A stretch of DNA of 64,000 nt, taken from contig CAJINV010000010.1 of assembly GCA_905178155.1 (NCBI GenBank), forward strand, positions 645,851 through 709,850, read 5' to 3'. Numbering within the stretch: the stretch's first letter is position 1; each line of letters starts with the position of its first letter. This document shows positions 1 through 64,000 of the stretch, piece after piece. Origin of the DNA: Amoebophrya sp. A120 (lineage: Eukaryota > Protista > Dinoflagellata). The position numbers and the translations under genes were made by a program. The notes beneath the pieces are model-generated. The model did no database searches. It worked only from the letters and a program-made list of their open reading frames with translations, and had not been told where the DNA came from.

Positions 1-156
1 TTCTGGATGCATATCCATATTCCGCATGACAAATGCCCTCTTTCCGTAGCAAAAATTACACTCCCTTTGCTGCTCATGCAATACAGATTTTTTTGGAATC
101 CAAATGCAGCATCACAAGTTGCATCCTTCCAGACCCAGACATTTTTGCATTTGATA
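1..156. mobile_element. Introner-like TIR element, family A (partial)
   Basis: Right end cttccagacccagacatttttgcatttgata. Confidence 0.85.
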
Positions 157-3100
157 CCTCGAAGCGCCGGTCGCGCATCATCAACGGTATTAGAGAGGGA
201 ATGATGTCCACGTGCGGAATCCCGCACACGTGCGCCTGCAGCTCCGCCGCTACTTGGCCACCGGTAGAACTTGTAGTTGCTGCCAGCTGCACTTTTCTGC
301 GGCTGGTGGATACCAGACTGCACAGGGATTTTTGCAGGTCCCGTTTCTGCTCCAGGTCCTCGTCGGCGTCCTCATTGACGGAATGGTTAAAGTTGTCATG
401 CGCTGAAGTGTCAAATTGTGTCGAATAAAACTTCGACTTCTGGTCGTCGCCGAAAATTTCCTGCCCGGTACAGGTGAACGTCATGGAGTGTTGCTGGCTG
501 TCTTCCGGCATGAAAGAATTTTCCTCCATCGACTGCTGGTGATGCTGGCAACTATCGTCCATCAGCGAGGAATCGTGATACCCGCGGCCAATTGCCTGCA
601 GGTCGTTTATCGCAGAGGAAGATGATATCGCAGCTCCTGCTCCAGAGCTATTTTTTCGCCGATAATTGTAGCTTGTTCCACTACCAATCGCATCTGATGT
701 TGTTGCCGTAGTTGACATAGTACCAACTTGCGCTGCGGAGTTCAGATTGTAGTTCCGCTGCTGGTTCATCTGCAGCCTTGCGTGTTGATCTGTCGGGAAC
801 AAATTTGAGGAGGTGTGAAACTGCGACTGCGAATTGGTGTGCGAAGAGGAGGACAACTGCCTGTTTCTTGCAGTGGTGCCGCCGCTCGTGGGGCTCATCC
901 AGAACGCTTCCAACTCCTCGCTGGCGGAAGAAAGCGGTACCTGCTCGTATGAACTCGCCTCGGTCAGAATTGTGTTTTCCCGATTCAAGTGCATGGATTG
1001 TTGCGACTGGGTTAACAAGACGCTGGAAGACTGGTTCACACTGGCGCCGCCACCAAAACTGAAGTCTTCCTCCGAAAGGAACAACTGGGGGTTCTGGTGC
1101 TGATGGTAGTTGTTCAACATCCCTCGAAGATTCTTGGAGCCGCGCCGTGGTGGCGAAAGGTGGTTCATCTGCTGCTCTTGTTCTGCAATAGCCCCGGTCG
1201 AATGATTCTGCAGTGGTTCTCCGCGTCCTCCAGTACATTGTTCTGCAGGGTAAAGAACTCCTACGGTGTGACCTGAAGACACTGCTCTTCCCGCGCCAGG
1301 AGGAGCGCCTGGAGGTCCTTCTCCAGAATGATTCGCTAGAAGCTCAAGCTGTTGACCAGCACCACCTCCGTTGCATGCAATTCCAGCTCCCGAAGTAGAA
1401 CCTGCCCGGGCTCGCTCCCGACTCTGTCGGGTGCTGCTCAGCAACGGCGCGCGCCGGTGGTAAGGCTTGTCTTTGAATAACGTGTTGACGTTTTCCCGAA
1501 TCAGTTTTGATTTGTCCACGACTACCTCCTCGTGGAGGTCGTTTTTCTCCTGAAGATGCTGCAGCTTCTCCAGCGTGTTTTGCACATCCTGTTCGACCGA
1601 TTCCCGGCTCTTTGCAAATTTATCGAGAACATCTTGTTGATCCCAAGAGGCATTAACGCCCGCGCCGTCGCTAGCATCTTCGTTTCTTGTAAACGAATTT
1701 GGGATTTGGTCCCCGCTTTGCTGTTGCTGTATAGTGCGGCTCTCTACTTCTTGTTCCAGATCATATCGTTCGTTCGACGCACTTCTCCCCGCCCTCAAGT
1801 TGTCGTGCGGTTCTAAGCTCTGGCTTTGGCCTTCTGTACTCAACATCTGCTGCTGCATCTGCGCTTCCTCATCACAGGGCGTCGCGTAGAAAATGTCCTC
1901 ATCGTCGATGACAGAGGAAGTTGCGAATCCGAGGTGCGACGAGGCGTTGTGATTGGTATAGTTGCTACTCATTTTTCTAGCCGGTGAGTTGTTGTTCTGC
2001 ACCTGTTGCTGCCTTTGCGTTTGCATGCCTGCTACACGCTCGTCCGCGATGATTTTCTTCTCCTGACACTGTTGCGCCTGCGGCTCTCCGTCCTCTATGC
2101 TCGACATGGAACTGGCCAGAAGTTCGTTAGACCACACGGTTTTTTTCGACGTTGTATATCCTGTGCAAAAGCATCCTGCTCGTATTGCAGTCATGCATTA
2201 CAAATCTTTTTCTGAAAGTAAATTAGCATTACAAATTTTATTTCTCATGCTGAGAAACTTTGTATATGCATTTATACAAATACGATCCTTTTGCACTGCA
2301 TATTGTAGTACCTGCGTTAATATTGCTCGTCCCCCCTACATGCTGTAGTTTTGATGCTGGGACGTGATGGATAATCCGACGGGAAGAAGAAATTTTAGAG
2401 GGAGAAGAAGTCGACGGATTTTGGGACGAGGATTTTGCTTCCGCCAAAACGGCTTCCGCTTCCTCTTGCAAGAACGTGGCATGATCGTCAGTGAAAAACT
2501 CCTGATCAGTTGTCAGCCCGCCCGCAGCGTCACTTTCTCTTTCTACCACCTCCTCTAGAACTCTGGTGGCAGATGAAATACAACCCGGATGTTGGCTCTG
2601 GTTGTACTGATGGCCGGGCTGGTGCGGATTCTCCAGAGGAGGAGGGCCACCTGGAAGTAGAACACCAGTCATTCTCTCCCCGCCCCGCTGGTATGCTAAT
2701 GGCGGTTGTTCGTGGTCCACAGGGTTGAGATAAACCGTGCTAACGCGATAATTGTTCGTAGAAGTACCACTGCTCGTTGTAGTACCAACTGGAAGATGAA
2801 AAGAGGTTCCCGGAGGGCCGCCCGAACCCGCGGGGTGCAGTGTCGAATTCGATCCTCCTCCACCCGCAGTTCCTTGGTCCGCTGCAGTTTGCTGCAATTT
2901 CGCGAACCGATTGTGCACTCGTTGGTAGGGAAGTTTCGTCACGTTTTTCCGTTTCTTGACCGGGGAAAAGGCCTTGAAGATGCCATCAGCATTCAGCAGC
3001 GAGTATCAAGTGCAAAAATGTCTGGGTCTGCAAAAGTATAAACTTGTCATGCAGATTTTCCATAACCCATGAGGTCTGGAATGTGGGATTTAGCATGACA

Positions 3101-3547
3101 GAATCTGCGAGGTCTCTGCCATGCCTACCCTGCATGAGAAGCTCCCTTCCATCTTGGTCAAAAGTGGACAGCTTTTCGCACTCATGCAACACAGATTTTT
3201 GCATGCTTCAGATTTACCATGACAAGCTGCCACCTTCCAGACCCAGACACTTTTACATTTGATAGCGGGTCGACTAAATCGGAGTTCCCGCGCTTCTTCT
3301 TCAAAGAGCTTGATCGCGAACGGTTGGTCTTGCTGGTAGCAGTTGCTGCGGCCGTAGAGGATGCGGCTCCTGTAGGATCTTTATTGCCGTGGTCGTGTGT
3401 CGCTGCATGTGGAGGAACGAAGCCTTCTTCTAATTGTTCTGCTGCTGCGGTTTCGCTTGCTAGCCCGTCCGCCGGCAACCTTTCAATTGACCTCGCTTCC
3501 AACGCGTCTTCCATCGTGCTGAACGTGGTGCGGAACTTGCTTTTCAT
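157..3547 (-). CDS. Large low-complexity (Q/S/T-rich) hypothetical protein, split by TIR elements and running off the left edge; the 5' part may lie at 10135-10825
   Basis: ORFs 3182-3547, 2238-2942 and 74-2194 join in frame when elements 3004-3264 and 2157-2302 plus one DR are removed (VDPLLNAD..., AGTTTSKK...). Confidence 0.7.
2157..2302. mobile_element. Introner-like element, family D
   Basis: tatcctgtgcaaaag...ttttgcactgcata; DR ttgta/ttgta. Confidence 0.9.
3004..3264. mobile_element. Introner-like element, family A
   Basis: TIR tatcaagtgcaaaaatgtctgggtctg; DR gcgag/gcggg. Confidence 0.9.
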
Positions 3548-3688
3548 ACCACCGTAGTTGTTCTGCGCATCATGTAAAGATGTATAGTTCTAGTTGCGAG
3601 CTGAGGAGAGTTCGAGTCGAATATCCGAGAAGCGAGAACCGGATCCGTCAAAAACAGATTTGACAAACCGGATCCGTCAAATGCAAAT

Positions 3689-14492: not shown

Positions 14493-16267
14493 TTATGCGA
14501 TCTCCACAACCCCACCCACCGCTTTAAACTTTTCAATCAGCGCGTCTGCATCTTCTGGTGGAACGCCCTTTTTCAGTACCTGATTATACAATTTGTAAGT
14601 ATCCGTGATCTACCATGTCAATGAGCTCCCTAGTGGATTTTCATGCAAAAACAAAACCTGATTTCATCGTAGTATTTGAGTACCAATGCAAACCGCATGT
14701 AGTTTATCCTGAAAGACATCAACAGAAAAATATTAAGTATGTATACCTTCGGACACCCCTCCACCAATTCCTTCGACTGTGCCAAGCCCAGTGCCGTCAA
14801 TGCCCGGACCTCTTTGATGACCGAAATTTTTTTCGGCTGGTCAAACGAAATCAACTTCAGCGTTACCGGCCCGGCTTTCTTCTTCGGCTCTTCTTTCTCG
14901 GGTTCCGCAGCGGCTTCCGCTCCTCCCGATTCGGAAGCGCCCCCCGCCGGTTGGATTTGCGGCTGCTGCTGCGCTGGTTGCTGGGGTTGCGGTATCATAC
15001 CTTCAAATTGATAAGCAAACTTTTGCAAAAACATTAATCTCTCTTCGCTTCACACGATGTTGCTAAAATAATCAATATATCCGCATCAGTTGTTGATTCT
15101 AGACGCAGACAGCACCGAAACCTGCATCTTGAAGTCGAATTTTGCTCATTTGCGTGAAGGCTGCAAAAGTTGGACCTTCGGACAGCCTCGCAATTATGTT
15201 ATTTTCGAAACTTCTTATTTAAACAAACACTAACCCTATTGAACTGCTCCTGATATGAAATTGCATCGCATCAACCTCGTGAGTTCACTTTGCCTTTCCC
15301 GCCCTAAAAATCAGGACAAGCGTGAACGCTAATGGTCATCGCCTGATGAACTTCATATTTTTTTTTGCAGAAGTCCCCACTTCCAAAATCAAAAAATTAC
15401 TCAAATACCACCCTGCTGTGGCATCATCATTCCCGAGCCAAACATTGCCATCGGATGCGGGATATCCTCTGCAAAAGTATCGCACTCGTATAAATGCAAG
15501 TCTTGCATTACAAATCTTTTTATTAAGGCAAATCCGCATGACAAATTTCATTTCTCATGCTAAGGAGATTTGTAATGCACTTTATACTAGTACGATACTT
15601 TTGCACAGGATACGGAAACGGCATTCTGCCCGGTATGGGACTTCCGTCTCCGGGCGTGAGTCGCTCTTGACAAATATCGCACAAGTCCGCCGCCTCAATC
15701 AAGGTAAGCGACATGATCTGATCGGCCAGGTTTAAAACCCGGTCGGAAGGCTTGCGTTTCAGCTTGTTGCCTTTGGTTTCGTCCGAGCTCGTGCCGTCTT
15801 TCAGCTTGGCGAAAATCTGGTCGAGGTGTTGTAGTTGCGGCTTTTTTTCTAATCCGTGGACGTGGATGACCATGATGCGATGTTTTTTCATTGTTCCAAA
15901 CGCCATTTCACATGGATACTTTTTCAACAAAACCTGAACAGCGAAAAGGAAATGGATCTCTGCCTGCATGCATTTTTGTAGAAGCATTCTGTACGTCGAA
16001 CGACGAAGACGCCGCCGCTGAAGCACCGGAGAAGCATCGCAGACTTGCAAGATTCGTTGTTCGTATCCCGGTAGCTCTTGAAGACGCGGCGCTGGCGGGT
16101 GTTGCAATAAAACTTCTTGAACAAGTTCCACTTGCGCTTCTTCCCATGACAGTGACAGACGATGACGCCGCCCTCGCAACTTCTCCGACCTGCAGGCGCG
16201 AAGAGACGGCCGGGGTGGGGGGCCTACAGCTGTTCTTGACGACCGTCTGGGGCACAGAGAAACGCAT
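14493..16267 (-). CDS. MRPL12: Mitochondrial-type ribosomal protein L7/L12, multi-exon
   Basis: LADQIMSLTLIEAADL, KKISVIKEVRALTALGLAQSKELVEGCPK and last exon VLKKGVPPEDADALIEKFKAVGGVVEIA*. R/S/A-rich presequence. Has canonical introns plus one TIR element at 15463-15612. Confidence 0.85.
15463..15612. mobile_element. Introner-like element, family D
   Basis: DR cggga/cggaa; excision gives MPFPHPM. Confidence 0.9.
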
Positions 16268-16850: not shown

Positions 16851-19800
16851 TCAATCTTCATCTGTCACCGTCGCACACGACGAAATGTCCATGCGAAAAT
16901 GCTGCACCCCCGGCGCGAGCGTCTTCACGATCGTTTCCTCATCCACACCAGCTGGTGCATCTTCCGATGTGTTCTCCTTCTGCTTGTTCTTCCCTTTGTT
17001 CGCGGACATCAATTCTCCACTGCTTTCTCGACTAGTTCCATGTTATCGCACGAAAAAACTGCTTCACTGTGATGATTTTGCAAGATCTGCATCACAAGTT
17101 TGTTGCACATGACACTGAAAATCTGTCATGCGCGCCTTCCAAGGGAAAACACGCTTGAAAATTCAATGTCTTGCAGGTGTAGCAAGACAAGTAGTTCTGT
17201 GTTCCATTTTCTGCATCACAAGTTCACAGTGAAACAGTTTTTTCTTGCGATACATGTAAAGGCGCGTCTGCTTCCAACGATGAAGTCACACGCTGTCCTC
17301 GCTCCCCACCTGGTACCCCGTGTAGTACTCCACTCGGTCGTGGCACCGTTGTTCTCGCCTCCTCTCCAGACAAAGAACTCGTGCCATGATGAAAATTATC
17401 GGCGTTGTCATCATCTTCTCCTTCGCATCCCTCGTTATACCACTCTGACAGCCGTTTCGTACTACTCGCAACCGCTGACGGGCCGACGACGTGCTGCGTT
17501 TCCTCGCTTATTCCGTTTGCTACAAGTTCGACATGATCCAATTCTACGCACGGCGAGTCCTTATCCTGATCCGACAGTGCGATGGGGGTGACAGGGAGCG
17601 CGATACTCGTTTTCCTTGCTTTCCCGGATTCCTCGGATTCCTGCGTGTACCAGTTTGTGAGCGAGACCCGGGGTTTCGCAGAGGAAGGTCTAGTAGTTGT
17701 GCTTCTATCTCTGCTGGTGGTGTTGCTGCTGGTATTGTTGTTGTTCCCCGGCAAGGCAAGTTTTGAAGCACCGGTAGTGCCGATGTTGGCACTGGTGGGT
17801 TTATTCGGTTTAGTGTTGTTCCATGGTTGAGTGTTGCTGCCACTAGAGCCCGACTGCTGGTTTTGAACGGTGTTCCGACCACTGGTTCTTCCGTAACCAC
17901 TGCTACTCGAACTTGACAGCTTCACCCTCGACGCCGCGGGCGTTTGCAGAAAATTGAAGTTGTTCAACTGTGTGGTTTCTCTTGCGGGGTTGTAGACCAC
18001 AGAAGAGGAGGATGACGTAGATGTGGATGTTGATGCTGCCAAAAGCCCAGACGCAGATGCACCTACAGCTACACCTCCGCCAACAACCACGGAACTCTTG
18101 GAACTCGAAGCAGACGTACAACCCGAAGAAAGAACATTTTGCGAATTCTTTTTGCTTCTGCCCGAGCTCCGCCACTTCGCAAACCGGTCGAACTCGAGAA
18201 GAGCTGCGTCGGGTTGTTGTACTACCGCGGCTGAGGAGGAGGATATTTTGCAACTGCCCCTTCTTTCATCAGCTTTCCCATGATCCGCGCTGCCTGTTTT
18301 TCCTTGTTCTGGATGGTCAGCAACATCACGATTTGTACCATGTGCGCTTTCGTTTGCTCCTTGTTCTCCTTGCTCATCCCTCGTCCCCTCCGTTGGCGTC
18401 GGAGTAGAACAACTCAAGTTGGCATTGGAAGTACTAGAACTCGATTGTCCATACGCCCTCGTCGTCCTTTTCCGTGGTTGTGGTTGTAACGTCAAGTCCT
18501 TCCTTTTTACCGGTCTTAACCGTGATTTGTCATACAATGGATTGATCCACTCCGAGTTTTTCTTCTGGCTCTGTGTGGACGTCCTCGCCTGCCGCGGGTC
18601 TTCGAATAGGGAAGTTATACTGCTAGAAGAACTCCTGCCCTCCTGATGTTCCGACTCTTCTAGATGTCGCAGTTCCCCAAGTGCCCCCGGCGTAGTAGGA
18701 GGACCGCAGGCCGGTCCTGCTTCTCGTGAAGAAGTGGTAGACGACCTTAACTTCACAGAAAGTTTATTCTTGTTTTCATTCGAGCCACTGCTTCCACTTC
18801 CGCCTAACACTGTCGGTGTAGAAGCAGAATTTCTTGCGACCGGCAATGATGAAGCAGATCCCGATCCGCCTCCTGCAACACTAAAATGGTCCGTTTTCGG
18901 CGTGGTCACACAGCTCGAAGCGCAGCTGATCTCTGACGCCGGAGACAACGTCGTATTTCGATTCGAGAGATTTTTGTTCTGCGTCGCAAAGTCAGATGGT
19001 GTAAGAGTCTGCCGCCACGAACTACTGCGGGTGAGGTGTTGCTTGTCTGCTGACGGCGTAGGAGCTAGTGCACTTGAATTTTTGCTCGTGAGAAAACTCT
19101 GATGTTGCTCCGATCGACGACCATTGAAGCTGCGCCGACCCTCTACTCCTTGCTTATCGTCAGAAAGGAGCTCTAACCCCAGTCTTTCTTCCTTGGCTGG
19201 CAAGGCAGTGCGTGGCTCCTCCAGCTCGATGTCAAGTATGGGGTAACTGTCCAGTTGAGAAGCCGCTTCAACTTCATCGCCCGGAATCGGATGGGGCTCC
19301 GGTTGCGATACCCGCTGCTCTTTGGCATACACTTCTTCAAAATCTTCGAGAAGGTTCATCTCCACAATATCCGACGGAAACGCAGCGGACGTGGCGCTGC
19401 TGATAGAAGAACTTTTGATTACACACTTAGAAACTGGAGAGGCCTCGAGACTGGTCGTGTCGATTTCGTCTTCTTCAGCGTCCTCGTCTTCACATCTGTT
19501 TTCTGCACTTGTCAAATGTAAAAGTGTCTGGGTCTGGAAGAGTACAACTTGTCATGTTAAATCTGAATCATACAAAAATCTGTGTTGCATGATTACCAAT
19601 ATATAAAGCTGTTCACTTTTGAGAAGGCCGAGAGGCAGTTTCTCATGCGGAAAAGGCATGGTAAAGATCTCACAGAATCTGTGATGCTAGGGCATGCATC
19701 ACAGACCTCACACTTCATGCAAAACGTGCATGACAAACCTGGCAATCTTCCAGACCCAGACATTTTTACAATCCATAGCACTGCTCTCCTTGTTGCCATT

Positions 19801-23307: not shown

Positions 23308-23352
23308 CTTGGCGGAACGCTCGCCTGTTTTTTAGTAGATGGATCTGCATTC

Positions 23353-43167: not shown

Positions 43168-45367
43168 TCAATGGAAGCTGCAAAAGTTAAAGTACAAAGT
43201 TTTCTTATGTAATGCAAAAGCATCGTACTAGTAGTAATCGCATTACAAATTTGCTCAGCATGACAAATGGAATTTCTCATGCTGATTTACCTTGAAAAAA
43301 AGATTTGTCATGCACAAATGCGATTACTACGAGTACGATACTTTTGCACAGGATATTTCTCCAGACGATACGAAGATCAACCAGTTCCCGCCTGTGATCC
43401 ACGGTTTCTGTTTTTCGATCTATCCTGAGTGAAAACGCCCCCACCCCATAGTGAAGATGGGCAATCTGCTACACAAATCAACCAGCATTGGCTGTTGCGC
43501 ACGACAAGTTTGGCCCCGCAGTGTCATCCTGTTTAGCTAGTTATAGTAGCATTACAGATCTAGCATATTATGCTGATTGGAGCATCACAAGTTCCAAACC
43601 ACGACTAGAAAATGCTTCTCATGTTGGGGCTCTGCATGAGAAGCATTTTGAGCATGCAGATCTGCATGACGACTATAGGGTTGGAACGTTTTTACTCAGG
43701 ATACGATCCCGATCGCCTTCGCCGCTACCTCGTACTCCTGTCCGCTATGGATGTGTCAGGATCGAAATCGTCAAAATTGAACAAATAGTTTGTCATGCAT
43801 AAAACCGATACCAGTCGGAAGCCCACTTATCAGGCGGCGCATGACAAATTTTCCGAGCATCGGAATCCAATTTGTCATGCTGTTCGAGCACAGAAGACTG
43901 CTTTTGTCATGCTAGTTTAGTAGCTCCATTTCAAACCCTAAACAGGCCAACAATCGGCCTCACTTGCCATCCCGGCAAGACAGGCACTTCATGCCTTGCA
44001 TTTTGTGCATCGCAAACTATTTCAACTTTGACGATTTCAATCCTGACGCTTCCATATCCGCGCTCCCGGTAGTACGCCGCCTGCAGCTCCGCTGTGACCA
44101 GATCGGCGTGAAAGGGCTCTATCTTCTTTCCAATCTCCTCTTCCGCCGACATATCTCCCGCAGTGGACCCATTTTTCGCATATGAACTGCAAAAGTTAAA
44201 GTATCGTACTAGTATAAATTGCATTACAAATTAGCGCAGCATTACGAATTGAATTTGTAATGCTGATTTTCGTTGAGAACGAAATTTGTAATGCATAAAT
44301 GCAATAATTACTACGAGTACGATGCTTCAGCATTGCATATCGCACTCCGCGCGGCGATTTTCTTCTCCGCGGCGGCGCGAATCGCGGCCAGAGCTTCCTG
44401 CGCCCCCGCAGCCGCACTTTCCGTGATTTTTACGTTGATGTCGCTCAGCGTTTTTTCGTATCCTGTGTAAAAACGTCCCCACCACAGAGTTGTGATGCAA
44501 ATGCGCAATGACAGGAGCATCTGTAATGCGCATACCCATGAGAGGCATTTCCAATCGAGTTTTGGCATTTGTGATGCTGTAAACAGCATGAGAAAGTGGT
44601 TTTATCACGCGGATTCCCTTGCTAACCAGCACAACGCTGCAGAGGAAAACTTATCATGCACAACTCCCAAAATTTGCAGATTTACCGACTTGACTATGGG
44701 GTGGGGACGTTTTTGCTCACCATATTTCGTACTCCGTCACCAGCGCCCGGGCCTTAGCCGCTGCCTTGGCGGCAGCTGCTTTCGCCTCCGCGCTTTCCTT
44801 TGCTACAGCGAGGGATCAAAATGAAAAGTCCCCCCTCCCCATATCGAACTGGAAATCTGTGATGCAGGATCTGTGTACACAAATCGGATTTGTCTTGCGG
44901 TAGAGGACTGCAGACAGATGCAAAGCCCGGAACGGGGTGGCTTGGGGTAGGTACTTAGCATGGCAGACGTCTGCCCTAGTAGCGTAGCAGCATTACAAAC
45001 CGCCTGCGAAATGCAGCGGAAGCCCTGGCTTTGCTCTCTTGCAAGACAGAATCGATTCGTGAGCACAAATCAGCATCACAAATTTTGAAAAGCACGCCTT
45101 TTCGATATGGGGAGGGGGGATTTTTCCTCACAATACGAGGTTTTTGGTCACCAGTTCCACGATCTGTTTCGCTTTTGCCTTGGCATTGCCGTTGTCTGCT
45201 GCGGTGGAGGAAATAGACGAGAAAAGTGACAAAGCCGAGGACGTCGGGAGGTTTGAAAGGTAGAAAAACCAAATCGCAAAATATCTGCAGACGATGGAGT
45301 GGATAAGAGGCGCGGCGGACGGTCTGCCACGCCGCTGCGCTACGTCGACAGTATTTCGTCCGGACAT
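43168..45367 (-). CDS. Ala-rich helical hypothetical protein split by six TIR elements
   Basis: Six successive excisions give one frame: VTKNLAVAKE, TEYEKTL, ARSAKNG, RERGQEY, AIGIEKQ, SSGETLYFNFCSFH*. Confidence 0.75.
43206..43355. mobile_element. Introner-like element, family D
   Basis: DR tttct/tttct. Confidence 0.9.
43421..43703. mobile_element. Introner-like element, family E
   Basis: TIR tatcctgagtgaaaacg; DR cgatc/cgatc. Confidence 0.9.
43746..44056. mobile_element. Introner-like element, family F
   Basis: TIR tatggatgtgtcaggatcgaaatcgtcaaa; DR tccgc/tccgc. Confidence 0.9.
44181..44339. mobile_element. Introner-like element, family D
   Basis: DR tcgca/tcgca. Confidence 0.9.
44459..44724. 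mobile_element. Introner-like element, family E
   Basis: DR tttcg/tttcg. Confidence 0.9.
44814..45135. mobile_element. Introner-like element, family G
   Basis: DR cgagg/cgagg. Confidence 0.9.
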
Positions 45368-46534: not shown

Positions 46535-49500
46535 TCACGCTGCCGTAGGGGCCACCTCCCCGTTGAGCATGCGATCGTCGGTCCAGTCAAAATAGCCGAC
46601 GCCTTTGCCGCCTTTCGCGAAGACTTTCACCGAATTGAAAACAAAATTGGTTCCGTAGTGCTCGGTGGGCATCAGCAATCCAACCTGGTCGTCCCATCCG
46701 GGGTAGATGCTTTTCGCATCCTTTTTCCCGTAATTCGCATCTTTCACCAGAGCATTGCACGCATCTATCCCCTGGTCGTTTCCGTTAGCCTGGAACTCGG
46801 TGCCGGCCCAGGACCCGCAAAAGGCAGTGTTGATGATGAAGGTTTGCGTGCGAAAGTGCTCGCTGGCTTCGCTGCAATGAGCCAACGGAAAGACCACGTA
46901 GGGCTTCAAACTTTGCAGCTTGGTCTCCCAGAACTCAGGTTGGGCGGACTCCTCCGCGCTGATGGCGTTGGCGTCTTTGCGAGGAATCCAGTAAAAATCC
47001 GTCTTGTCCTCCCCCAGCTTCATGATGTGAATGCCACCCTGCTCCTTGTTGAATTCGATCCCGTTCGGAATGCCCTTGGCCAGGACCCCGCAGCCGTCGT
47101 ACCCCTCGCAATTTCGCATTTTCAGGTACAGCGTCATGTAGTCGGGGCACTGGTTGTCCGGGAAGTACCAGTGCTGCTCGTTTGCTGGATCCGGTCTACA
47201 CTGCTCGTACACGTCGTCCCCTACCTCATCCTCGGTGGGATTCAGCCTGTTCGTTTTGGTCCGGAACATGTTGCAGTTCCCGACGCAAGGCTTCCCCTCA
47301 GGGCAAGCACCCTCGTCCCGTCGCCAGGGGCCAAACTCGGTGTGCAGGGTGGTGGGCTATCAAATTGAAAAGCGGGGCCCTAGCTGTACTACACAGAACT
47401 TGGTGGAAGCATTAGCATTTGTCTTTGTTGTATAATATCATGCCGAACCGACCGCGCAACCACTGCCGTCCAGGACTAGTGAGGGTCGTTCATGCGGCAA
47501 CGCTCTCGAAAAACCCCAACGCCACCCAGGACCAGCAATTAATTAAATTTCATTTTCTTTCTATTAGTCGCCGATGTAAACATGCCGATGCCGTCTTGAT
47601 GTCTTTTCAATGCAAGCAATTGATAAAGTTTTCACCCTGAAGAGCAAAAATTTGTGTTGCGAAATAGAGGCTCAACACCAGTGGAAACTGTTCATAACGA
47701 GGATGCTTCTCACGATTGAAAATTCTGGATCAGAAAAAGAACTCAACATAGTCGGTTCTGCCCTCCAACACGACAAAAGAATCTTCTCTTTTCGAAACTT
47801 CGCCACAGATATTAATTGAGTATTTCCACCTTCTGCGGGCGGGGCACTAGCACTTTTCAACAAGATATGATCATCTCCTTGTTGGGAAACCCGTGCACGT
47901 GCTCCATCATGTCAAACTCCCCCGACTCCGGCCAGTGAGCATGCCCAAACTGCCACCCGTCCTCGGCCCAATACCCCTGCCTCGGGACCCAAAACTCTTC
48001 CCCGATCGGCACGACCCCGCCCTTGTGCGCGGTCCAGTAAGCGGGCCACGAGCCATCGATCGCGGGCATGCGCTCCACGTCGACGACAAAAATCGAACCG
48101 TACGTGAAGCCAAACTTGCTGTGCATGCGAATTGCGTACCGGTTGCCATTTTCGTCGCTCCCTACGTCCGGGCTTTTGCGGTCATCGGGCGCCAAGGCCG
48201 GCCTGCCTTTCGCGAAGTCGATGCTCACCTTGTTGTCGTTGGTTTGCGTGATCAGGGTGTCTCTTCGGTTCCAGCCCTCCTGGTAGTTAACGGCCCCCTG
48301 TGTGGGGTCGCCGAGTCTGTCCCAGGGGACAAAACAGTCCAGGAAAGCGGCCCGATCGCTCCCCGGACAGTTTAGCGCCAACTGCAGCTGCGGTGACGCG
48401 GAGTTTTGTTCCTCGTTAGACACGTTTACTTCCTCGGACGGCTTTTCCTCGGAAACACTCAGCGGATCCGTTGGTGGCACTTCTGGAGCTGGATCCGTTG
48501 GTGGCACTTCTGGAGCTACGCTGATGACAGTGCACAACCCCCTCCCTCACTTGTCGGGCATGAGCAGCAATAGAAACACCACCAGACCTCAACCTCATGG
48601 AGCCTGTGCATGACAAGTTGTTCCTGCGCCGACTGAAGTACTTACTGTTCTGGCTACATCAAGAACTTCCGGGATTTGTCATGCCAACTGTGCCAAATGA
48701 ACGAAGAAACTGCAACTGGCTCTGGCTTCAGCATTTTGCATGACAAACAAGGGGGACGTCGAGTTGTGCAATCGGATAACGCGGGTCTGATTCCGGGCGC
48801 CGTTCTTGGTCGTCTCCTCGGCTTCCTCCGGCGCCTGGCAGTACTCACAGGCCGGCTCCTATCCTGAGAAAAAAGTGTTACAGTTGCACACTCTGATGGA
48901 AGACAAGCAAGACAGACGACCTCTGCCATGCAGGAAATGCTTGGCAGCCTCATTTCATTCGTGTTCTTTTCCCTTTAGACTCTGCGCATCACAGGTTGTT
49001 TTTGCCATGATGTCGAGCAACTTTGTGATGCAGAAATTCCAACAAATGTGTAACTGCAACACTTCATTTTTCCTGTGATAGCTCCACCGGATGACTGACG
49101 TCCCTGGTCCCCACAGGCTCCCCAGACCGCAGCTCGGTAGATGTTCTCGTAGCCCCAGCGGCGAGTTGCAGTATCCTGAGTAAAAGCGTCCCCACCCCAT
49201 AGTTCTTGTCATGCAGATTTGCAGTCACAGGAAGATTTGTAATGTGCATCCCCGTGAGAGGCACTTATTTCAGTCGTGTTTTGGACTTTGTAATGCTGTA
49301 AACAGGATGATTAGCTGGCTTTGTGATGCGGCTGCACTTGTGAAACTGCACCAAAATACAGAGAGGAACTTGTCATGCGCATACTCCCAAAACTTCTCGG
49401 CTTGTGTTGCGAGATCCCCGTCTTGAGTCTGGGGTCGTGGGGACGTTTTTACTCAGGATATGCAGCGACGAAGCTTTAACATTTTCTGCGGTGGACAGAG

Positions 49501-50763: not shown

Positions 50764-53700
50764 TCAGACCCCATCCGGAAATAACGCCGGATATTTGTCT
50801 TTCCAATCCCGCTGGGGCTCTTCGCTGCCATCAAGCATGCGGTCGTCCGCCCAGTGGTAGAAACTTTCGCCCAAACCACCCCCCTCGATTCTATCACACG
50901 GAAAATAACCAGAAGGGCTAGCGTACCAAATAAATGCCTGGATCGATACAATTACAACTGTATCGATACAACAAAACTTGCTCGAAATCGTCGCTCTTGC
51001 GACGTCACACTGTTTCTTTTTTCCAACATCTTCACCTTTCATGCGGACATAACCAACTCAACAATTCCCGCCTAAATCCTATCTTCACGATCTCCATCCT
51101 TGGGACTTCAGAATACAGTACGATAGTAGTACGCGCGGCTGATAGTTTTCGCGCAGAACAAGGCGACAAGATGACTTTCATGCACAATAAATTTCGAGTA
51201 CGTTTGTGCACGCCTGATAGATTACAATTACGTCAAGTATTGTACGCTAGCACCTTACGAAAAAATTGTTCCAATGCATAGGTCCACTTTTTCGAGAAGA
51301 TTTTGATCGAGTTGAAGAGGAAATTCGTCCCGATCCCCTGGTCTGGCTCCCCTTCCTCACTGTCCCACAAAACCTCCCCGAGGTCCGCAAATTTGCTCTC
51401 CTGGGTCTTATAGCCGTAGGCAGCGTCCTTCATCAAAGCATTGCAGTTCTCCCGCCACTTCGTGGCCTTCCAGTGTTCTCTTGCCTCATCTGTAGTGAGA
51501 TCTGACGGAACCGGGGGATGATCGTTCTCTCGAGGACCCCAGTTGTACGTAAACCCCGCCCACTCCCCGCAGAACGCCGTATTCAGGACCAGCGTCTGCG
51601 TGCGAAACAGTTGCTGCGCGTTGCAGTTTTTGTTTTTATTCACGGGAAACACCACGTAGGGGGTCAGGGGTCGGAGTTTTTCGGTCCAAAACCAGCCCTG
51701 CTTGGTTTTTTCCTCGGTGAAAACCTCTGGGTCCACGTCGTTTCGGGGTATGAAGTAAAACTTCTTCACTTCGTCTTCTTCTAATTGCATTAAATGGATT
51801 CCCCCCCGTTGCTTGTTAAATGGCACGCCGTTCGGCACGTCTCGGACGTACGCGCCGCAGCCCAGATTGCCGTAGCAGCTGGTCTCCTTCAGGAATATTG
51901 TGAGGAAAAATCTCCCCATATCGAAAAGGAATCTGTGATGCTGATTTGTGACCACAAATCAGCTTTGTCTTGCGCACAAGGCAAACGGCAGCCATGTGGC
52001 GCATGGTACAGTCAGTCTGTCATACGTTTGCGCCTATGTCTGACTTGTTTCTCATGCTCAGCTGCTAGCCGGACGCGTACTTACCCAAACGGGCTTAGAT
52101 TATGTCGACAAGATGAAGCTGTTGCTGCAATACAAAGGTCATTTGTTTACACAAATACAGCAACACAGGTTGTCTTTTGAGTATGGGGTGGGGGCTTTTC
52201 TCACTTTGATAAGAAACGTCGGGAGTTTACACCCTTCCGTCATGTTCCACAGCGCGTGGTGGTTTGCCTTGCACTCCTCGTTCGCGTCTGTTACTTCTTG
52301 AGAAGACGGCTCGGAATCCCCGAGAGTCCCTCCGCGGGAGGGCCACACCTGGCAGCTGTGGCTGTTGTAGCTGGTGGCGCCGCTGTGGACGGTGGTGATC
52401 ATTTCTGTGTTGACGAAGCCGTGCAGGTGCTATCAAATGCAAAAGTGTCTGGGTCTGGAAGATTATGAGACTTGCCATGCATGTTTCGCGTGGCCCAGGA
52501 TTGTGTGTGATGCATGCCCTACCATCACAGACTTTTAGAACCCTTCCTGATGCCTACTCCGCATGACAAACGCCCTCCCCGCGTGGCACAAACTGGACTC
52601 CTCTTGCTGGTCATGCAATACAGATCTTTTTAGAGTCCAAAGTTAGCATCACAAGTTCCAACCCTCCAGACCCAGACCCAGATCCATTTTTGCATTTGAT
52701 AGGTGCTCCATCATGTCGAATTCGCCCGATTCCGGCCACCCACTGTGGCCAAACCCGTCACCCGGCTGAAATCCGGTGTCCCACGCGAGCGGCACGATGC
52801 CGCCCTTGTGGGCCGTCCAGTAGGCCGACCAGCTGGCATCGATGGTCGGGATCCGCTCCACATCCACCACGAACAGCGAGCCTGCCCCAACCGCGTACTT
52901 GGTGTGCATGCGAATCGCGGGGCGATGGTTGTTCCAGTCGTCGTTCGCGTGCGTAGTGATCTTGCCCTTGTGAAAATCGACACTGACTTGTTTTTTCATC
53001 ACCGCATTTTCATCCGGATTGTCTCGCAGCGTAATCAGGTCGTCCTTCATCTCCCACCCTTTCTTGTAGTCCACGGCCCCGCCGGTGGGATCGCCGACTT
53101 TGTCCCACGGGACAAAACAGTCCAAAAACGCGTCTAGATCGTCGCCGGGGCAGCTGAGCGCCAACCGGTAGTTGGTGGAATCCGGATTTTCAAACGGCCA
53201 GGTGGTGGTAGAAGTCGTACTAGAGGTTGTGGATGTGGACAAGGTTGAATCTGCGCCGTTTGAATTTACCATCACGCACTCGAACGGGTACTGCCCGGGG
53301 TCGGAAATCCGGTCGGCCAATGGGAAAATTGACGCACGGCTACACACATCCACTTCTTCACTGGCAGCAGATGAAACGTCAGCAGCTTGTTGTGCGCCCT
53401 TTTTGCAGCAGGCCGCCTCGTACTGAGCATGCGCAGTGCCCGCCGCGGGCGTTGTCCCCTCGGGGTAGCAGGCCGCGCAGCTCCCCGGGGTGCCGTTGCA
53501 GCCGGGGAGGCAGGAGATGGCGGTCGGCGGGAGGGGTGTGGTGTCCGAGGCAAACAGGTTTTTCGTGAAGGCCTGCGGGTGTTTCTTGTTCAAAACCCAG
53601 GCCGGCAAAGCGACGCAAGAGTGGAAAGAAGTCTCGTTTCCACCGTACGCGAGCACTTCTGCCGGGACGGTCTGCTCGACCGGCAGCCCGGGGATGGTGA

Positions 53701-56151
53701 GCGCTTGGCACTCGGGGTACTTTTCCGCGTCGGCGTTATCAAAGTGAAAAATGCCCCCACCCCCGAACTAGGGAGCATTTGTATTGCAAACCTTTCCAAA
53801 TGAAACACTCGCCCTCTTGCATCTATCAGCATCACAGATTTCCGATCGTGAATACTAGCAAAAATTTGCATTGCAATAGACGCCAGCAAGAGTGGCCCTT
53901 GTCATGCAAGCGATGCGATACACGCCTAGACTCTGCATCCGAAAGATAAGATTCATACTTCTTTCATGCATGAGCATGACAAAAAGTTTTCATTTGGAAA
54001 CTTCGCATCACAAATTTTATGCAATTTCAGGGGTGGGGGGCATTTTTCACTGTAATATGCGTAGGGAACGGTTTCCGTTTCCCGGTCGTACTTGCAACAC
54101 GCACTCTTGTAGGACCCGGGCGCCAGGCCCTGTATCAAATGCAAAAATGTCTGGGTCTGGAGGGATTCGAACTTGTGATGCGCATTTCACAACACGCAGA
54201 AATCTGTCATGCGTAGGCAGCAAAAGCCGCCCACTTCCTGTCACCAAAGTGGGGGATTTGTCATGCGGATTAGGCATTGCGGAACCGTCTCGAAAACTGT
54301 GATGCTAAAGCGTGCATGCCAGACCTTCTGTGTCATGCAAAAACACCATGGCAAAAATCTCCGTTCTTCCAGACCCAGACACTTCTGCATTTGATACCCT
54401 GTGGCAGTTCGTCATTTCCATCTTCTCCGACGAGGCACCAGTTCGCACACTGGCTCCCCGTCCCGGCCAGGCGAAACTGCATCCCACACGGCTCAAAGCA
54501 GTCCATCGGTCTGCCTATCCTGAGTAAAAACGTCCCCATAGCAGAGTCAAGATGGGGATCTCGCAACACAAATCGAGAAGTTTTGGGAGTCAAGCATGAC
54601 AAGTTCCTCTCTGTAGTGTAGTGCAGTTTAGCAAGTACAGCCGCAACACAAATCCATCTAGTCGTCCTGTTTACAGCATTACAAAGTTCAAAACACGATG
54701 GGAAATGCCTCTTATGGGGATGCGCATTACAAATCTTCCTGTAACTGCAAGTCTGCATGACAACTCTGGGGTGGGGACGTTTTTACACAGGATACTGCCG
54801 GTAGTTGGTTCTTCCGGACACCCACCTTGGGCCTCGCTGACGCAACGGCATCAAAAGGAAACATCCCCCCTCCCCATATTGCAACGGAAATTTCTGCTGC
54901 TGGATTTGTGTACACAAATCGGCTTTGTCTTGCAGTATAGGACTGCAGGCAGATACAAAGCCTAGACGGGGCTGGCCAGAGGTGGGCGCTCAGCATGGCA
55001 GACGTCTACCCTGTTGGCGCAGCAGCATTACAAATCGCCTGCGTAAAGCGGCGAAAGCTCTGGCTTTGCTCTCTTGCAACACAGACCTCATTTGTGACCA
55101 CAAATCAGCATCACAAATTTTCAAAAGGATGCCTTTTCGATATGGGGAGGGGAGATTTTTCCTTTTGATAAACGGACGTCGATGGTCCACTCCAGCGCAA
55201 GGGCGGGCGGTTGCAGTGGAGATGATGTAGTTGCCGCCTCCGTTGAAGATGTCGTGGCGTCGTCCTCATCTTCTGCCGTGGTTGTAGACGTCGTGGTAGT
55301 CGTAATTCCAATTTCCTCAGAAGTCGTCGCTTCTTCTTCATCTCCCCCGCAGCCGACACAGTTTTCGCACGCGCCCTGCACCGGCACCTGATTGGAGGCA
55401 GTGAGGACACCGCTGAGCGGCGTCAAGCTCGTGCTCGGGGCGTCAAGCTCCGAGGAGGAACTGAGCGAAGAAGGTGGGGGCGGCTGCACAGGAGGAGAAC
55501 CCTCTTGGTTCTCGACGAGAGCGCGAGGTGGAGACTGCGTCGTTCTAATATCCTTGCTCGCCATATTAATAACGTTCAAAGAAGTAAAAGAACTACTAGA
55601 GCTAGACCTAGTATCTGAAGCATTTTTATCAGACGACAAGGTGGATGTTGCAGGAGCACGGAGAATGTGTATCAAATGTAAAAATGTCTGGGTCTGGAAG
55701 AGTGCATGTTTGTCATGCTTGTCTGGCATGACTCTTAAATCTGTCATGCACGTTACCCAAGAGCTCCATTTTTCTGTGATGCAGAAACGCAGTTTGTCAT
55801 GCAGAATAGGCAACACCTAGAAGCTCAGAAACTTGTCATGCTGAGCCAGCATTTGTGGCCTCATCATGAAACGCCACCCAGCATCACAAGTTTCCAGACC
55901 CAGACAATTTTACATTTGATAATGCGCCTCTTCGCACGATTGTAGTGCTTCTTGGCTGCTGTTGATGTAGTTTTCATCGAAACCAGCCTGCTGCGCTTTT
56001 TCTGTTGCTGTGGTCCTCGTGTACCACTTTTTTCCCTCACGGAGAGGCCAGCGACGGGGCGCGCTGCGAAAATAAGGCTAACGTGTAAGAACACCACCTC
56101 CATGATCATGGCCGAAGTGGTGAGGACGCGTCGAAGACCGCTGAACTTCAT
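50764..56151 (-). CDS. GH16 paralogue 2 with signal-peptide-like start, Thr/Ser linkers and Cys-rich modules
   Basis: WSAYWT, WPESGEFDMMEHLHG and QTLVLNTAFCGEWAG; interrupted by seven or eight TIR elements. Confidence 0.85.
50892..51280. mobile_element. Possible old, degenerate introner-like element
   Basis: tat...ata ends, weak TIR, DR gattc/ggtcc; excision is in frame (KWTEGGGL). Confidence 0.5.
51896..52211. mobile_element. Introner-like element, family G
   Basis: DR aggaa/agaaa; excision gives PTFLKETSC. Confidence 0.85.
52431..52701. mobile_element. Introner-like element, family A
   Basis: DR ggtgc/ggtgc; excision gives MEHLHGF. Confidence 0.9.
53737..54057. mobile_element. Introner-like element, family C
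   Basis: DR ggcgt/tgcgt. Confidence 0.9.
54133..54396. mobile_element. Introner-like element, family A
   Basis: DR ccctg/ccctg. Confidence 0.9.
54516..54794. mobile_element. Introner-like element, family E
   Basis: DR ctgcc/ctgcc; inverted relative to 49172-49460. Confidence 0.9.
54849..55170. mobile_element. Introner-like element, family G
   Basis: DR aacgg/aacgg. Confidence 0.9.
55670..55921. mobile_element. Introner-like element, family A
   Basis: DR atgtg/atgcg. Confidence 0.9.
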
Positions 56152-56999: not shown

Positions 57000-59900
57000 T
57001 TATGCCTCCTCGACGACCTCGTCCCCGTTGAGCATGCGATCTTCGTCCCAGTCAAAGTAGCCGACGCCCTTCCCACCTCTCGAGAAGACTTTCACCGAAT
57101 TGAAGACAAAATTGGTTCCGAAGGTCTCGTCGGGCAGCAGTTTGACCGTGTTCCCGACCCAGTCGGGGTAGATGCTGTCCGCCCCCCGCACCCCGTAGCC
57201 CGGACTTGCCACCAAGCTGTTGCAAGCGTCGTGGCCCTGATCGTGAGCATTACCGTTGGGCTTGAAGTCTTTCCCGGCCCAGTCCCCGCAGAACGTGTTG
57301 TTGATGATCAGGGTTTGGGTGCGGAACAACCTGGCGGACGGACAGTTCCCATCTTTGTCGGTGGGGAACACGGCGTAGGGCGTGGACTCCGCCAGCTTTC
57401 TTTCCCAAAACTCCGGCTTCTTGGTTTCCGCGTCGGCGAACGTGCTCCCGGCGGCCTCCACCTCCGCGCGCGGGATCCAGTAGAACCGGGTCTCGTCTTC
57501 TTCCAACTGCATGATGTGAATCCCCCCGCGCTGCTCGTTGAATTTGACGCCGTTCGGGACGCCTTTCACCTTCACGCCGCAGCCCAGGGAACCCTCGCAA
57601 TTTCGCTCCTTCAGGTACAACGACAGGTCGGGCAGCTGGGCCGAGCATTCCGCCTGCTCAAACGCGTGTATGTTGTTTGCGTAGTCCGCCTCGCATGTTT
57701 CGTACAAACCGTCATCGCTGAGGTTAAGGTTTATTTCCCCGTAGTTTTCTACAGCTTCTTGACTCGGTTCTGCGTTCAACACGTTGGTCATCGTGCGAAA
57801 AACGTTGCAGTTCCCGTTGCAGGGCTGCGGAGCAACTGCGCCGCACATGTAATTCCCGTACTCGGTATGCAGGGTGGTGATCATCTCCTGATTACCCCAG
57901 CCGTGCAGGTGCTCCATCAGGTCGAATTCGCCCGACTCCGGCCAGTGCGCGTGGCCCAGCCCGTCCTCAGGCCTGTAGCCGTTGGGCACATATGCGATCC
58001 CGCCCTTGTGCGCGGTCCAGTAGGCCGGCCACGACCCGTCGATGGCGCGCATCCGCTCCACGTCCACGACGAAAATCGCCCCGTGGGTGAAGCCGTACTT
58101 GGTGTGCATCCGGATGGCGGGCCGCTTGCCCCAAAGCTCATTTGGAAGCTGACCGGTCTGAAAATTCAGGCTGATCTGGTTTTTCTCCGGCAAGTGGGTG
58201 ATCAATTCCTCCTTTTTCTCCATACCCTTGGCGTACCGCACGTGCCCGTTGCTCTCTGCCCGGCGGCCCGCGTAGGCGGGGGCGTAGTACGCCACGTAAA
58301 CTGCATCGCGGGTCTCAAAGCCCACCGCCCTGGGCATGATATGTGTGCGGCCGACGAGTTCGTCTCTTGGGAGGCACCGCACCTCCTCGAAAAGACTGCC
58401 CTGAAAGACCAACGCTGCACCAATCCCACTCACCAACGCGTGGTCATGTCTTATGTGGATTGATTCAGCCTTTTCTGCTGCTGTTTTTTCCGCCAGAGAA
58501 GATTCGTCAGCAAACTCTTCATCACAATTTTCGCCCGCATCTTCACCCGCTGTTTCACAAATCACCTCTTCCTCCGCTTCTTCCTGTTCCTTCTCTATTG
58601 CTGCCAACGCCGACATGTTTGCCTCCGTGATCGCGACGACCTGTGACAGCGGGTGTTTTCGGAAGATCCACGAGTAGGCGTCGCCCAACTGCGCCCCGCT
58701 GATATTTTGGGTCGCGAAACAGATCGGGTTTCCCCACTTGCTTCCCCGCAGTAGTTGTGGCTCCGGGCTGTCTCCTACCTCTTTGTTGAAGACGTTGTAG
58801 TTGCATGGCTGCTGAGATGTGTCCCCTGGCTGTGGGTTGAAGCGGCTATAGTCGCAGTACCTCCTTGGGCCGATGAACGGAAACTTGCTGCTCGGCTTCT
58901 GCTTGTTTGCTGAGGCTTCTCCCGTCGAGGACGAAAGCGAAGACGAAGATGATGACGATGCGACACTAGCAGAGAGCGTCGCACGCCCGTCGTTGTTCTT
59001 GTGTCTTTTCGCACTCACAGCAAGTCCGTCTGTTGCTCCGACAGGTCGTTTTACTCCAGCTGTCTCGTCCTGGTTCGCATTTGCGCTTCTTGCTGCCTCC
59101 TGCTGCCGTAATCTCGCGGCGTCGCTGCGAAGAAAGAAAACCCGCTTCGGTGCTTTCCCCGTAATCTCCCCTCCTGCGACCGCTTGGTCACGCTGGCGCT
59201 TCACGGCGACAGTAGTGGAAGTAAGAAGCACCTCCCAGAAGATCAGCAGCACGACGAAAGTAACGACGGACGGGCAGTTGCAAAGACGGTAAAAGCAACG
59301 ACGAGGAAGAACGACTGCACTGACAACGACGTCCGGAGCCCCGTCAAGCGGAGGGAAGAAGTTCGGCTTTCTGGTTTTCTCTCGAAACGGTGAGCCACTC
59401 GTGGGAACCCTTTAGACACCGGCACAGCAAAAACGCAAACAACGCACGAATGAAAGCGTACAAGCCGTTCTGGACGAAGAAGACAAGATGAACGTGGCCG
59501 CGTCGCTCGCTCGCTCGCCGGTCATGAATCTCACTCTACGCAAACACAGATCAAGGTCAATACACAAATAAAGTAAAATCACGCAAAACCCAACCCAACC
59601 CAACCCCCTTTTTCTCCATACCCTTGGCGTACCGCACGTGCCCGTTGCTCGGATCCGCGGGCTTGTTCCAAAACACGAAACAGCCCAAAAACTCGTCCAC
59701 ACTGGTTCCCGGACAGTCCAGGGCCAATATCCTGTGCAAAAGTATCGCACTCGTAGTAATTGCACTCATGCATTACAAATCTCGTTCCCAACGCAAATCA
59801 GCATGACAAATTCCATTTGTCATGCTGAGCGAATTTGTGTTGCAATTACTACTAGTACGATATTACTTTTGCAGCTCATAGCCAACTGCAGGGGTTTATT

Positions 59901-62280: not shown

Positions 62281-62470
62281 CAGACTTAGAGGACGAAAGA
62301 AGAAAAGTAAAAGGGTAGAGACCTAAACCTACGGGGGCGCATGCAAAAGAGGGCAAAGGGAAGGGCAGAAGGAAGACATCAGACTTAGACGAAAAAAGCA
62401 AGATAAAAGGGTAGACTCTCAATCCTACAGGGGCGTATGCAAGAGGGGGCAGAGGGAAGATCAGATTTCG
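62281..62470. repeat. Imperfect ~99-bp tandem duplication
   Basis: cagacttaga...aaaagggtaga...cctac.ggggcg.atgcaa at 62281 and ~62380. Confidence 0.75.
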
Positions 62471-63197
62471 GCAACGGAATGAGAGGAGCGCACGAATTTG
62501 CGATCGGGCTCCTGGAAAGCAAAACACACGAACAGTGGCACAGACGTACGAACCGACGCTCTGGTAGATAGGATAGCACGAGCAAAGAAAGCATCTACGA
62601 GAACAGCAAATACGGATACAAACAAAAGGACGGCCATCAGCCAAAGCCAAGCCGTGAGCATATAAAAGCAAACATACAAAGCAGCGAGCGAGTAACCAGA
62701 GGTCACATCGCTGTGCAGGTCTTTCGTAGTAATTTCTCTAGACGCGCGGGCTTCGCACTTCGTTTTACTGTTTCGCAGACTAAAAAAAGAAAAAAGGGGA
62801 GGGGTAACGAAAAAAAGGGGACCGAGCTTCGTTCTACTTCTTTTTGGTTTTGCTTTTGCGTTTCCTGAATTAATTTTTACAGAAAAATGAGTAACAGCCT
62901 TTCGCAGTAAACTGTAGTTTTAGGTGGGGACAAGGCGCTTTATGGTAGAACTTTTAAACACTCACAATAATTTGACAACTACGCTCGAAAAATGTAAATG
63001 TGTGAATAAAGTCAAGTTGAATAAAGTCAAGTTAGGACATTTTGGAAATGCTGAGAGATGCAAAAAAACCTCATGCAAGAAGTGCATGGAAAGTTCCAAC
63101 CGAATAAATACCGAGCTCGCTGTAATTCGTTTTTGGCGTTGTGAACGTGTCGTGAATAGAAAAATCGGAAACACGATTGAATCACCCCTCAAAAGTA

Positions 63198-63739
63198 CTA
63201 GTTAGACGAGTTAGAAGAAAAGATCGAAGAGTTGTGCGCGGCATTCCTGTACAACCCGCCCACAGGCTCATCCTGCGAAAGAGGAGAAAGCCCATCTCCC
63301 GGCTCAACATTCTGGGACGATGATGATGTTGAGGGTGCGCCGTCGGAAAGTAATTCGCCGCTCGCCGGGTCGTGCTCGTGCACCTCCGGCGATAGTGAAA
63401 GCTCCGGGGCGAGAGAGCCCGCGGAAGTCACGTCGTTCCCGCTCGCCTCGGCCATTTTCAGGACCCAGAATTTGTAGTACAGCAGCGTGGATCCGGCGTC
63501 CACGGGCCGCGCAGGCTGCTCCCAGGCTTGCAGGATGTCGTAGGCCCGCTTTTGCGCGTTCGCGTCGTTGGTCAGCGCCATGTTCCCGGTCGCAATCTGC
63601 CCGATCCACATTTTTAGCGAAGCGTGGATAGCGCCCAGCCGCGTCACGTGGTTATCCACGATCGAAATATCCACCGGCGTGCATGGCGCAACGCAGGACC
63701 AGTCGTCGGTTGCGTAGTTCGCCGGGTCTTTGCAGTCAA
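63198..63739 (-). CDS. Terminal exon of a hypothetical protein entering from the right edge
   Basis: 158-aa ORF with coding-like composition, next to a TIR element at 63740. Confidence 0.55.
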
Positions 63740-64000
63740 TATGGATGTGTCAGGATCGAAATTGTCAAAATCGAAAAATTTGTGATGCACAAAATGGATG
63801 CCAGTTGGGGCCTCAGTTTCCAAGTGGCGCATGACAAATTTCGGGACCACCAAAATCCAGTCTGTCATGCTGTTTGGGCAAAGCAGACTGCTCCTGTCAT
63901 GCTACTCTGGCAACACATTGTATAACCCTAAACAGGCTTACAATCGATCTCATTTGCCTGCTCCCCAATACAGGCGTCGCGTGCCCTACATTTTACGCAT
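63740..64000. mobile_element. Introner-like element, family F (partial)
   Basis: Homologous to 43746-44056. Confidence 0.85.

Follow-up and report, generated by a model that had tools for sequence, protein, structure and literature searches.

How does Amoebophrya sp. A120 remove its roughly 40,000 non-canonical introns? A stretch of 64,000 nucleotides from contig CAJINV010000010.1 (positions 645,851 to 709,850; the window) bears on this question, being dense with short TAT...ATA elements with terminal inverted repeats and a flanking 5-bp direct repeat. The class, its TAT start and its 5-bp duplication are already known for A120; an earlier, sequence-only reading of this DNA had itself acknowledged that the class is not new in Amoebophrya. 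In the accessible portions of the published work (to which all citations here refer), A120 introners form 1,954 families with inverted repeats that open with TAT, seven bases and AAA, direct repeats of 3-5 nt and RNA-supported removal (Farhat et al. 2021, PMC7789003), and one family, 38, is labelled Ginger-like with a “5-bp TSD, TA/TA Termini”, TSD standing for target site duplication (Gozashti et al. 2025, PMC12130899). The window's elements likewise start with TAT, carry the A-run after 7 bases, fall into repeated families and leave RNA without GT-AG borders, on contigs whose RNA status is guessed. Two differences stand out: in those portions of Farhat et al. the borders are called variable or unknown and A120 is said to lack transposases (PMC7789003), whereas here one register fits, N-TAT...ATA-NNNN, and a probable hAT-like remnant lies in an element of the same grammar.

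Removal of the elements as precise, non-GT-AG introns, as the sequence-only reading had proposed, is supported by RNA-type contigs and by annotated proteins. The contigs come from three runs of one sample (X1-X3) and are likely RNA, although that assignment is a guess. At all nine fully placed joints they skip the length of the element plus exactly 5 bases; X1 holds all nine and six of them recur in X2 and/or X3, one-sided joints at 44814 and 48523 being left out of the count. The exon parts of these pieces show no letters other than those of the window, every element, old or young, is gone, and the pieces end close to the start of the gene, at 56251-56276. A single contig lacks both of two family-1 copies that face opposite ways (52431 and 54133). 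Two exons match NCBI proteins of A120 (P0001 and P0002) at 100%, and these proteins lack all 15 elements located in their genes. No other intron type turned up in the genes of P0001 and P0002 or in those covered by RNA. Most of the placed introns were first located by motif, the one at 39386 by the protein alone. On the sense strand, 39 of 40 elements offer no GT-AG or GC-AG in any repeat register (54516, with GC-AG, is the exception) and thus fall outside the GT/GC-AG borders of U2 spliceosomal introns, which speaks against their belonging to that class but not against a similar way of working.

Conserved motifs that the elements were said to interrupt are indeed rebuilt: DVGMGLGAD in P0002, DPDGHFGN in P0001 and MEHLHG from an RNA joint. 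The gene labels given with them survive in part, since FkbM and kinase are weak Pfam matches below the cut-off, while for GH16 there is support from the paralogous gene at 57003. The lack of GT-AG and GC-AG claimed for 52431-52701 is likewise true of the sense strand, but one antisense register reads GT..AG. Two further observations concern transcripts. The X8 and X9 data (2026 raw RNA reads) contain element sequence with different flanks at 55670-55701 and 43584-43621 and cover no exon; these reads would come from copies retained or transcribed at other loci, or from a different strain. X4 covers no exon either, and none of these data argue for or against removal. One X1 contig runs continuously from 45136 to 47352 over the spacer between two minus-strand genes, by read-through or a long untranslated region, although such a contig is no proof of a single transcript.

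Where exactly does the cut fall? Most joints alone allow 5-8 registers, but where the flanking repeats differ the joint reveals which repeat copy stays. The joint of 50886 to 51281 demands that 4 or 5 upstream repeat bases be retained, and that of 53732 to 54059, found in three runs, permits at most 4; therefore only 4 fits, and this is the single register compatible with all nine joints. The same unique register emerges at 41112, where only retention of 4 bases yields the Val of P0001. The intron thus probably has the form N-TAT...ATA-NNNN, cut 1 base before TAT and 4 after ATA (the 1+4 register), exactly so in 21 of the 24 introns placed by RNA or protein and with one base off in the other 3. 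Eight junctions (4 RNA, 4 protein) rule out the mirror register, and because they do so despite both element orientations, the cut follows the direction of the transcript. Farhat Table S4, in which the nine leading A120 sites are all NT-xx, was considered as proof of the register and dropped: 8 of the 9 also end AN, and a mix of GT-first and AG-last choices gives the same pattern.

Copies with 4 of 5 repeat bases mismatched are still annotated as removed at this register, so the direct repeat itself is not the signal. Predicted folding gives a long hairpin for a young copy (z -8.2) and little for an old one (z -1.8), which is annotated as removed although it lacks an end-to-end hairpin. Of 42 triplet bases, 41 survive in the seven copies whose repeats have 2-4 mismatches; in these copies pairing at positions 15-30 has dropped from 0.72 to 0.44. 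Judged by sequence, it is the triplets that look like the removal signal, rather than the long hairpin or the repeat.

The census of elements (Table 1) draws on a scan of the window that imposed no end motif and asked only for an inverted repeat with a perfect 5-bp repeat immediately on either side; it returned 30 matches, against 0-3 in each of 8 second-order Markov control sequences; 18 of the 30 have TAT/ATA ends, 4 further ones are one base off, and 8 were discarded as tandem or inner repeats. With the repeat length set to 6 bp the matches drop to 4, none of which begins with TAT. Relaxed scans (4 of 35 candidates discarded as false or nested pairs), reading by eye and protein mapping bring the count to 42 complete elements, 11,754 bp or 18% of the window, besides two copies cut by its edges (1-156 and 63740-64000). 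The figures of the sequence-only reading hold: about 40 elements had been claimed, with a 5-bp repeat perfect in roughly two-thirds (27 of 42, or 64%; 8 copies have 1 mismatch, 4 have 2 and 3 have 4) and at least 7 families. Clustering of 40 elements gives families of 11, 7, 4, 3, 2 and 2 copies plus 11 singletons, and the element at 43746 forms a seventh multi-copy family with the edge copy at 63740. Orientations within families are mixed (6/5 and 3/4). Taking out the element with one repeat restores the frame, as also claimed, in that 39 of the 40 copies then listed sit in minus-strand open reading frames (ORFs) of 226-1322 amino acids (aa), the only copy outside being a 1210-bp intergenic element. 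Stop codons occur in all three sense frames of 40 of the 42 elements, whose length plus repeat, modulo 3, is distributed 16/13/13 across the three frames. In imperfect repeats the mismatches concentrate at repeat position 2 (8 of 20, over 13 elements), maybe by chance.

What, then, performs the cut? Overall we incline, with reservations, to the reading that these are non-coding DNA transposons with hairpin ends and a 5-bp target duplication, cut at 1+4 on RNA, likely by a loosened spliceosome. U+2, A+3 and U+4 would occupy the places of GUAU in canonical donors; U6 and Prp8, which read these donor positions, would still do so, the checks on G+1 and AG would have been dropped, and the role of the acceptor signal would pass to the paired UAU/AUA ends together with a spacer of 4 bases. 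Since 1+4 equals the length of the duplication, an insert would leave the protein unchanged and many families could spread through exons. The donor consensus U+2, A+3, U+4 holds in 38, 38 and 39 of 39 elements (position counts exclude the intergenic 1210-bp copy), and the sole +2 variant, at 34385, is G-C. Among four canonical introns in the window, a small sample located through GT-AG borders and an open frame within genes that we take to be RPL3- and L7/L12-like, 3 begin GTAT. The A120 spliceosome is reported with all but 6 of 89 proteins and with U2, U4, U5 and U6, U1 being undetected (PMC7789003). Low U6 m6A (N6-methyladenosine) favours U at +4, and in Fritillaria a modified U2 spliceosome handles transposon-derived introns (PMC13326754). 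Fritillaria borealis thus resembles A120 in having transposon-derived non-GT-AG introns in bulk; its intron ends still follow a pattern and it has known U2AF paralogues (PMC13326754), whereas here neither the first nor the last base is fixed and orientation is irrelevant.

Several points count against a loosened spliceosome and the fixed register. There is no consensus at +1 (G in 13 of 39) or at -4 to -1, none of the four canonical introns has ATA at -7 to -5, and a branch-like motif at a fixed distance was not found in the elements, 8 of 41 having none in the sense strand. A transposase, too, would be expected to keep TAT fixed at both ends. X1-X3 represent one sample, as contigs only, with guessed RNA status, and may overlap the data behind the annotation. 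The upper bound on the register is set by a single RNA joint, at 53737, and a single residue of P0001, at 41112, where a GT donor could have steered the annotation.

Could a second, non-spliceosomal machinery measure from the paired UAU/AUA ends, as proposed for Euglena, and release circles or linear molecules? The lack of consensus at +1 and in the last four bases would suit it, as would removal irrespective of orientation, the ATA kept in old copies but absent from all four canonical introns, and the long hairpins of young copies. The Euglena signature, N3-CDG...CHG-N5-6, has fixed spacers (PMC12501133), and its code, built on a comparable ruler, is considered to work independently of the usual spliceosome (PMC12501133; PMC11282704); the undetected U1 of A120 (PMC7789003) points the same way. 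However, N-TAT matches the GTAT of three of the four canonical donors and its single +2 change is G-C, the old copy without an end-to-end hairpin is still annotated as removed, and the A120 spliceosome is nearly complete (PMC7789003), so we hold this explanation to be the less probable one, though a real competitor. The comparison with Euglena nonconventional introns can be drawn further: complementary triplets at fixed spacers (exact here in 21 of 24), borders that direct repeats make slidable and a likely origin from miniature inverted-repeat transposable elements are common to both (PMC12501133). The CAG/CTG signature is absent here; Euglena has those triplets with spacers of 3 and 5-6, and its exons start with a purine, where A120 has TAT/ATA and spacers of 1 and 4; its excision products in Euglena are reported to be circular, and the lineages are unrelated (PMC12501133). 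A stronger proposition, that A120 has a second splicing code, N-UAU...AUA-NNNN, that does without G-U, A-G and a set orientation, has converged on that of Euglena and has its ruler matched to the 5-bp duplication of an unrecognised hAT-type transposase, is one that we offer as rather unlikely.

It is improbable that the cut is unfixed, the machinery sliding within the repeat or taking any available GT, GC or AG. Farhat et al. do call the borders variable or unknown (PMC7789003), annotated donors in large families are gt in ~27% of copies and acceptors ag in 24-30% (PMC12130899), and most joints are individually permissive. These shares, however, would be expected from choosing among equivalent registers; besides the near-absence of sense GT/GC-AG in the repeats, all informative joints agree on one register, and no alternative joint occurs among the 6 joints listed. 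Excision from DNA in the expressing stage, in the manner of internal eliminated sequences, which the sequence-only reading had wanted checked, or an origin of X1-X3 in DNA of insert-free alleles can be set aside as very improbable: the ends are transposon-like, the X1-X3 type is guessed and contigs drop rare variants, so that empty sites may have been missed among the 1,431 joints, of which the 15 listed all join different elements in X5; but X5 contigs, judged genome-like from even depth, run through four elements at depth 24-31, the same as unique DNA, the register follows the transcript, and the X1-X3 pieces combine unaltered exons with the loss of every element and an end near the gene start.

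The sequence-only reading had also argued from the shared grammar to one removal machinery and one mobilising enzyme. A single removal rule is supported across families and is now placed; one enzyme does not follow, because the 1+4 cut passes cleanly only TAT...ATA inserts with a 5-bp duplication. The common ends and duplication may instead be a splicing filter on exonic inserts.

The 1210-bp intergenic element offers a candidate for a mobiliser. A search of 1.84 billion proteins with its 107-codon frame gives 4 relatives (best E 3e-11), namely a fragment from A120, a protein of 1081 aa from strain AT5 and two proteins without a name, one of which clusters with a 1170-aa AT5 protein that itself has 4 further full-length relatives. 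In alignment this family (A1) shows blocks in hAT order, HDD, DQASxEM, xHR, RW and ExxHKERW/F, with D, D, a CxxH-type His, Trp and E following one another around a predicted helical insertion; hAT was predicted from these motifs before folding. The catalytic residues of Hermes are, we presume, D180, D248 and E572, and those of family A1 would play the same roles. Hermes further has H268 and W319 (PMC4763223). Elements of the hAT5 type (Hermes, 8edg) produce 5-bp duplications (PMC12730594) and share with the present case the D, D, H, W, E order, the helical insertion and short inner repeats running both ways (PMC12730594, PMC4763223). Among 48,161 chains, Hermes ranked first, each time as a weak match, for the whole model (predicted local distance difference test, pLDDT, 50; Z 6.9, root-mean-square deviation 6.4, 193 aligned) and for the A120 fragment (pLDDT 78; Z 6.5, deviation 4.0, 149 aligned from Hermes 267). 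By motif order and model, family A1 is probably hAT-like; that it is among the mobilisers of the small families is somewhat less likely than not.

On the other side, a designed protein scores less than 1 Z apart from Hermes in both matches. No match came from Foldseek, from Pfam, from sequence searches of the PDB or from phage searches; the Pfam hAT, BED and dimerisation domains have no match in 10 of 10 family members, which divergence may explain, and unlike hAT5 the family yielded no BED finger, dimerisation domain or full-length element with ends. What the 1210-bp element has in common with the small families is limited to the triplets and the duplication; their inner motif and A-run are missing from it, and the full-length relatives come from AT5, whose introns are canonical (PMC7789003). 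Neither the fixed 1+4 register nor a hAT-type candidate mobiliser was found in the literature searched (Roy et al. 2023, Farhat figures 3 and S19-S25 and part of the Gozashti supplements lay outside the search). An interrupted, apparently intron-bearing family member occupies 82-2023 of L001, a contig from a metagenome collection, with no ends seen.

The inner motif, GCA(T/A)NA(C/G)A, occurs in both orientations, with 133 of 187 matches inside 35 candidate elements, and is also met in canonical introns and spacers. As GCA(T/A)NACA it was considered as a branch point and rejected, its distances ranging over 14-307 nt in both orientations; a transposase-binding repeat is more likely. In 3 of the 4 canonical introns, TACAAA stands 15-27 nt before AG.

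Among the neighbouring genes, a G+C-rich block holds an apparently intact ORF of 1565 codons with Helitron Rep and PIF1 helicase domains (4766-9460, minus strand), flanked by 14-15-nt tandem arrays at ~3680-4200. It was considered as mobiliser and discarded, as Helitrons make no such duplication. The word “Helitron” is absent from the accessible main text of Farhat et al. 2021 (PMC7789003). On the minus strand at 46538-59411, GH16-like glucanase genes stand three in a row and carry 4, 8 and 0 elements, which makes them well suited to dating the insertions. The gene at 26882-28717 (minus strand), presumably for ribosomal protein L3, has three canonical introns of 206-239 nt with element-like motifs, perhaps decayed inserts. 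Local duplications at 23353-23819 (148 nt, 97%) and 24640-24900 (by eye) lie in a long spacer where no gene was recognised.

Table 1. Elements of the window and the frame within the intergenic element (coordinates in the window; joints as last and first retained base)
Feature	Coordinates	Strand	Remarks
Right end of family-1 element, truncated by window edge	1..156
Family 2, perfect repeat	2157..2302
Family 1, 1 mismatch	3004..3264
Family 2, 1 mismatch	15463..15612
Singleton, perfect repeat	17044..17252
Family 1, TGT left end, perfect repeat	19510..19777
Family 2, 2 mismatches	19834..19983
Family 1, perfect repeat	22369..22630
Family 1, 1 mismatch	30361..30593		missing from P0002
Family 4	30896..31217		missing from P0002
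Family 2	31310..31446		missing from P0002
Element interrupting DVGMGL/GAD	31529..31806		missing from P0002
Shortest element, 109 bp	31860..31968		missing from P0002
Family 1	33454..33714		missing from P0002
Family 1	33771..34031		missing from P0002
Family 5, 1 mismatch	34080..34300		missing from P0002
Family 6; intron start would be GCAT, sole +2 variant	34385..34694		P0002 gene
Element, 2 mismatches; intron start would be GTCT	35250..35505		missing from P0002
Intergenic TAT...ATA element, 1210 bp, ~200-bp inverted repeats, TATAA duplication	36555..37764
107-codon remnant, predicted hAT-like transposase, from CxxH-like His on, within 1210-bp element	37247..37570	-
Family 1, interrupting DPD/GHFGN	38904..39177		missing from P0001
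Old element; repeat 4/5 mismatched, hairpin gone, TAT and ATA kept	39386..39693		detected via P0001 alone
Old element, repeat 4/5 mismatched	40301..40614		P0001 requires at least 4 upstream repeat bases retained
Old element, repeat 4/5 mismatched	41112..41328		P0001 Val given by 1+4 cut only
Family 1	41397..41659		missing from P0001
Family 2	43206..43355
Family 3	43421..43703		genome-like contig runs across
Family 7	43746..44056
Family 2	44181..44339
Family 3	44459..44724
Family 4, GAT left end	44814..45135		RNA-type piece begins 45136
Old 510-bp element, 2 mismatches	47358..47867		joint 47352/47868
Element, GAT left end, 1 mismatch	48523..48778		RNA-type piece stops at 48517
Family 5	48860..49080
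Family 3	49172..49460
Old element, 2 mismatches	50892..51280		joint 50886/51281, 4 or 5 upstream repeat bases retained
Element, 1 mismatch	51896..52211		joint 51890/52212
Family 1, interrupting MEHL/HG; CT-AC sense, GT-AG antisense only	52431..52701		joint in 3 runs
Family 6; ends AT-GC	53737..54057		joint 53732/54059, 3 runs, at most 4 upstream repeat bases retained
Family 1, orientation opposite to 52431	54133..54396		joint in 3 runs
Family 3; GC-AG in one register	54516..54794		joint in 3 runs
Family 4, CAT left end	54849..55170		joint in 3 runs
Family 1, 1 mismatch	55670..55921		joint in 2 runs
Family 2	59728..59880
Left part of family-7 element, truncated by window edge	63740..64000

A fixed code would correct gene models that choose intron borders by GT or AG, and it would explain why many families share one grammar. 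The candidate transposase family would give a first handle on how the elements spread. Should the cutter prove not to be the spliceosome, A120 would represent a second independent origin of a Euglena-like splicing route. If A120 does have such a second code, matched to the duplication of a hAT-type transposase, host and transposon would jointly render insertions into exons harmless.

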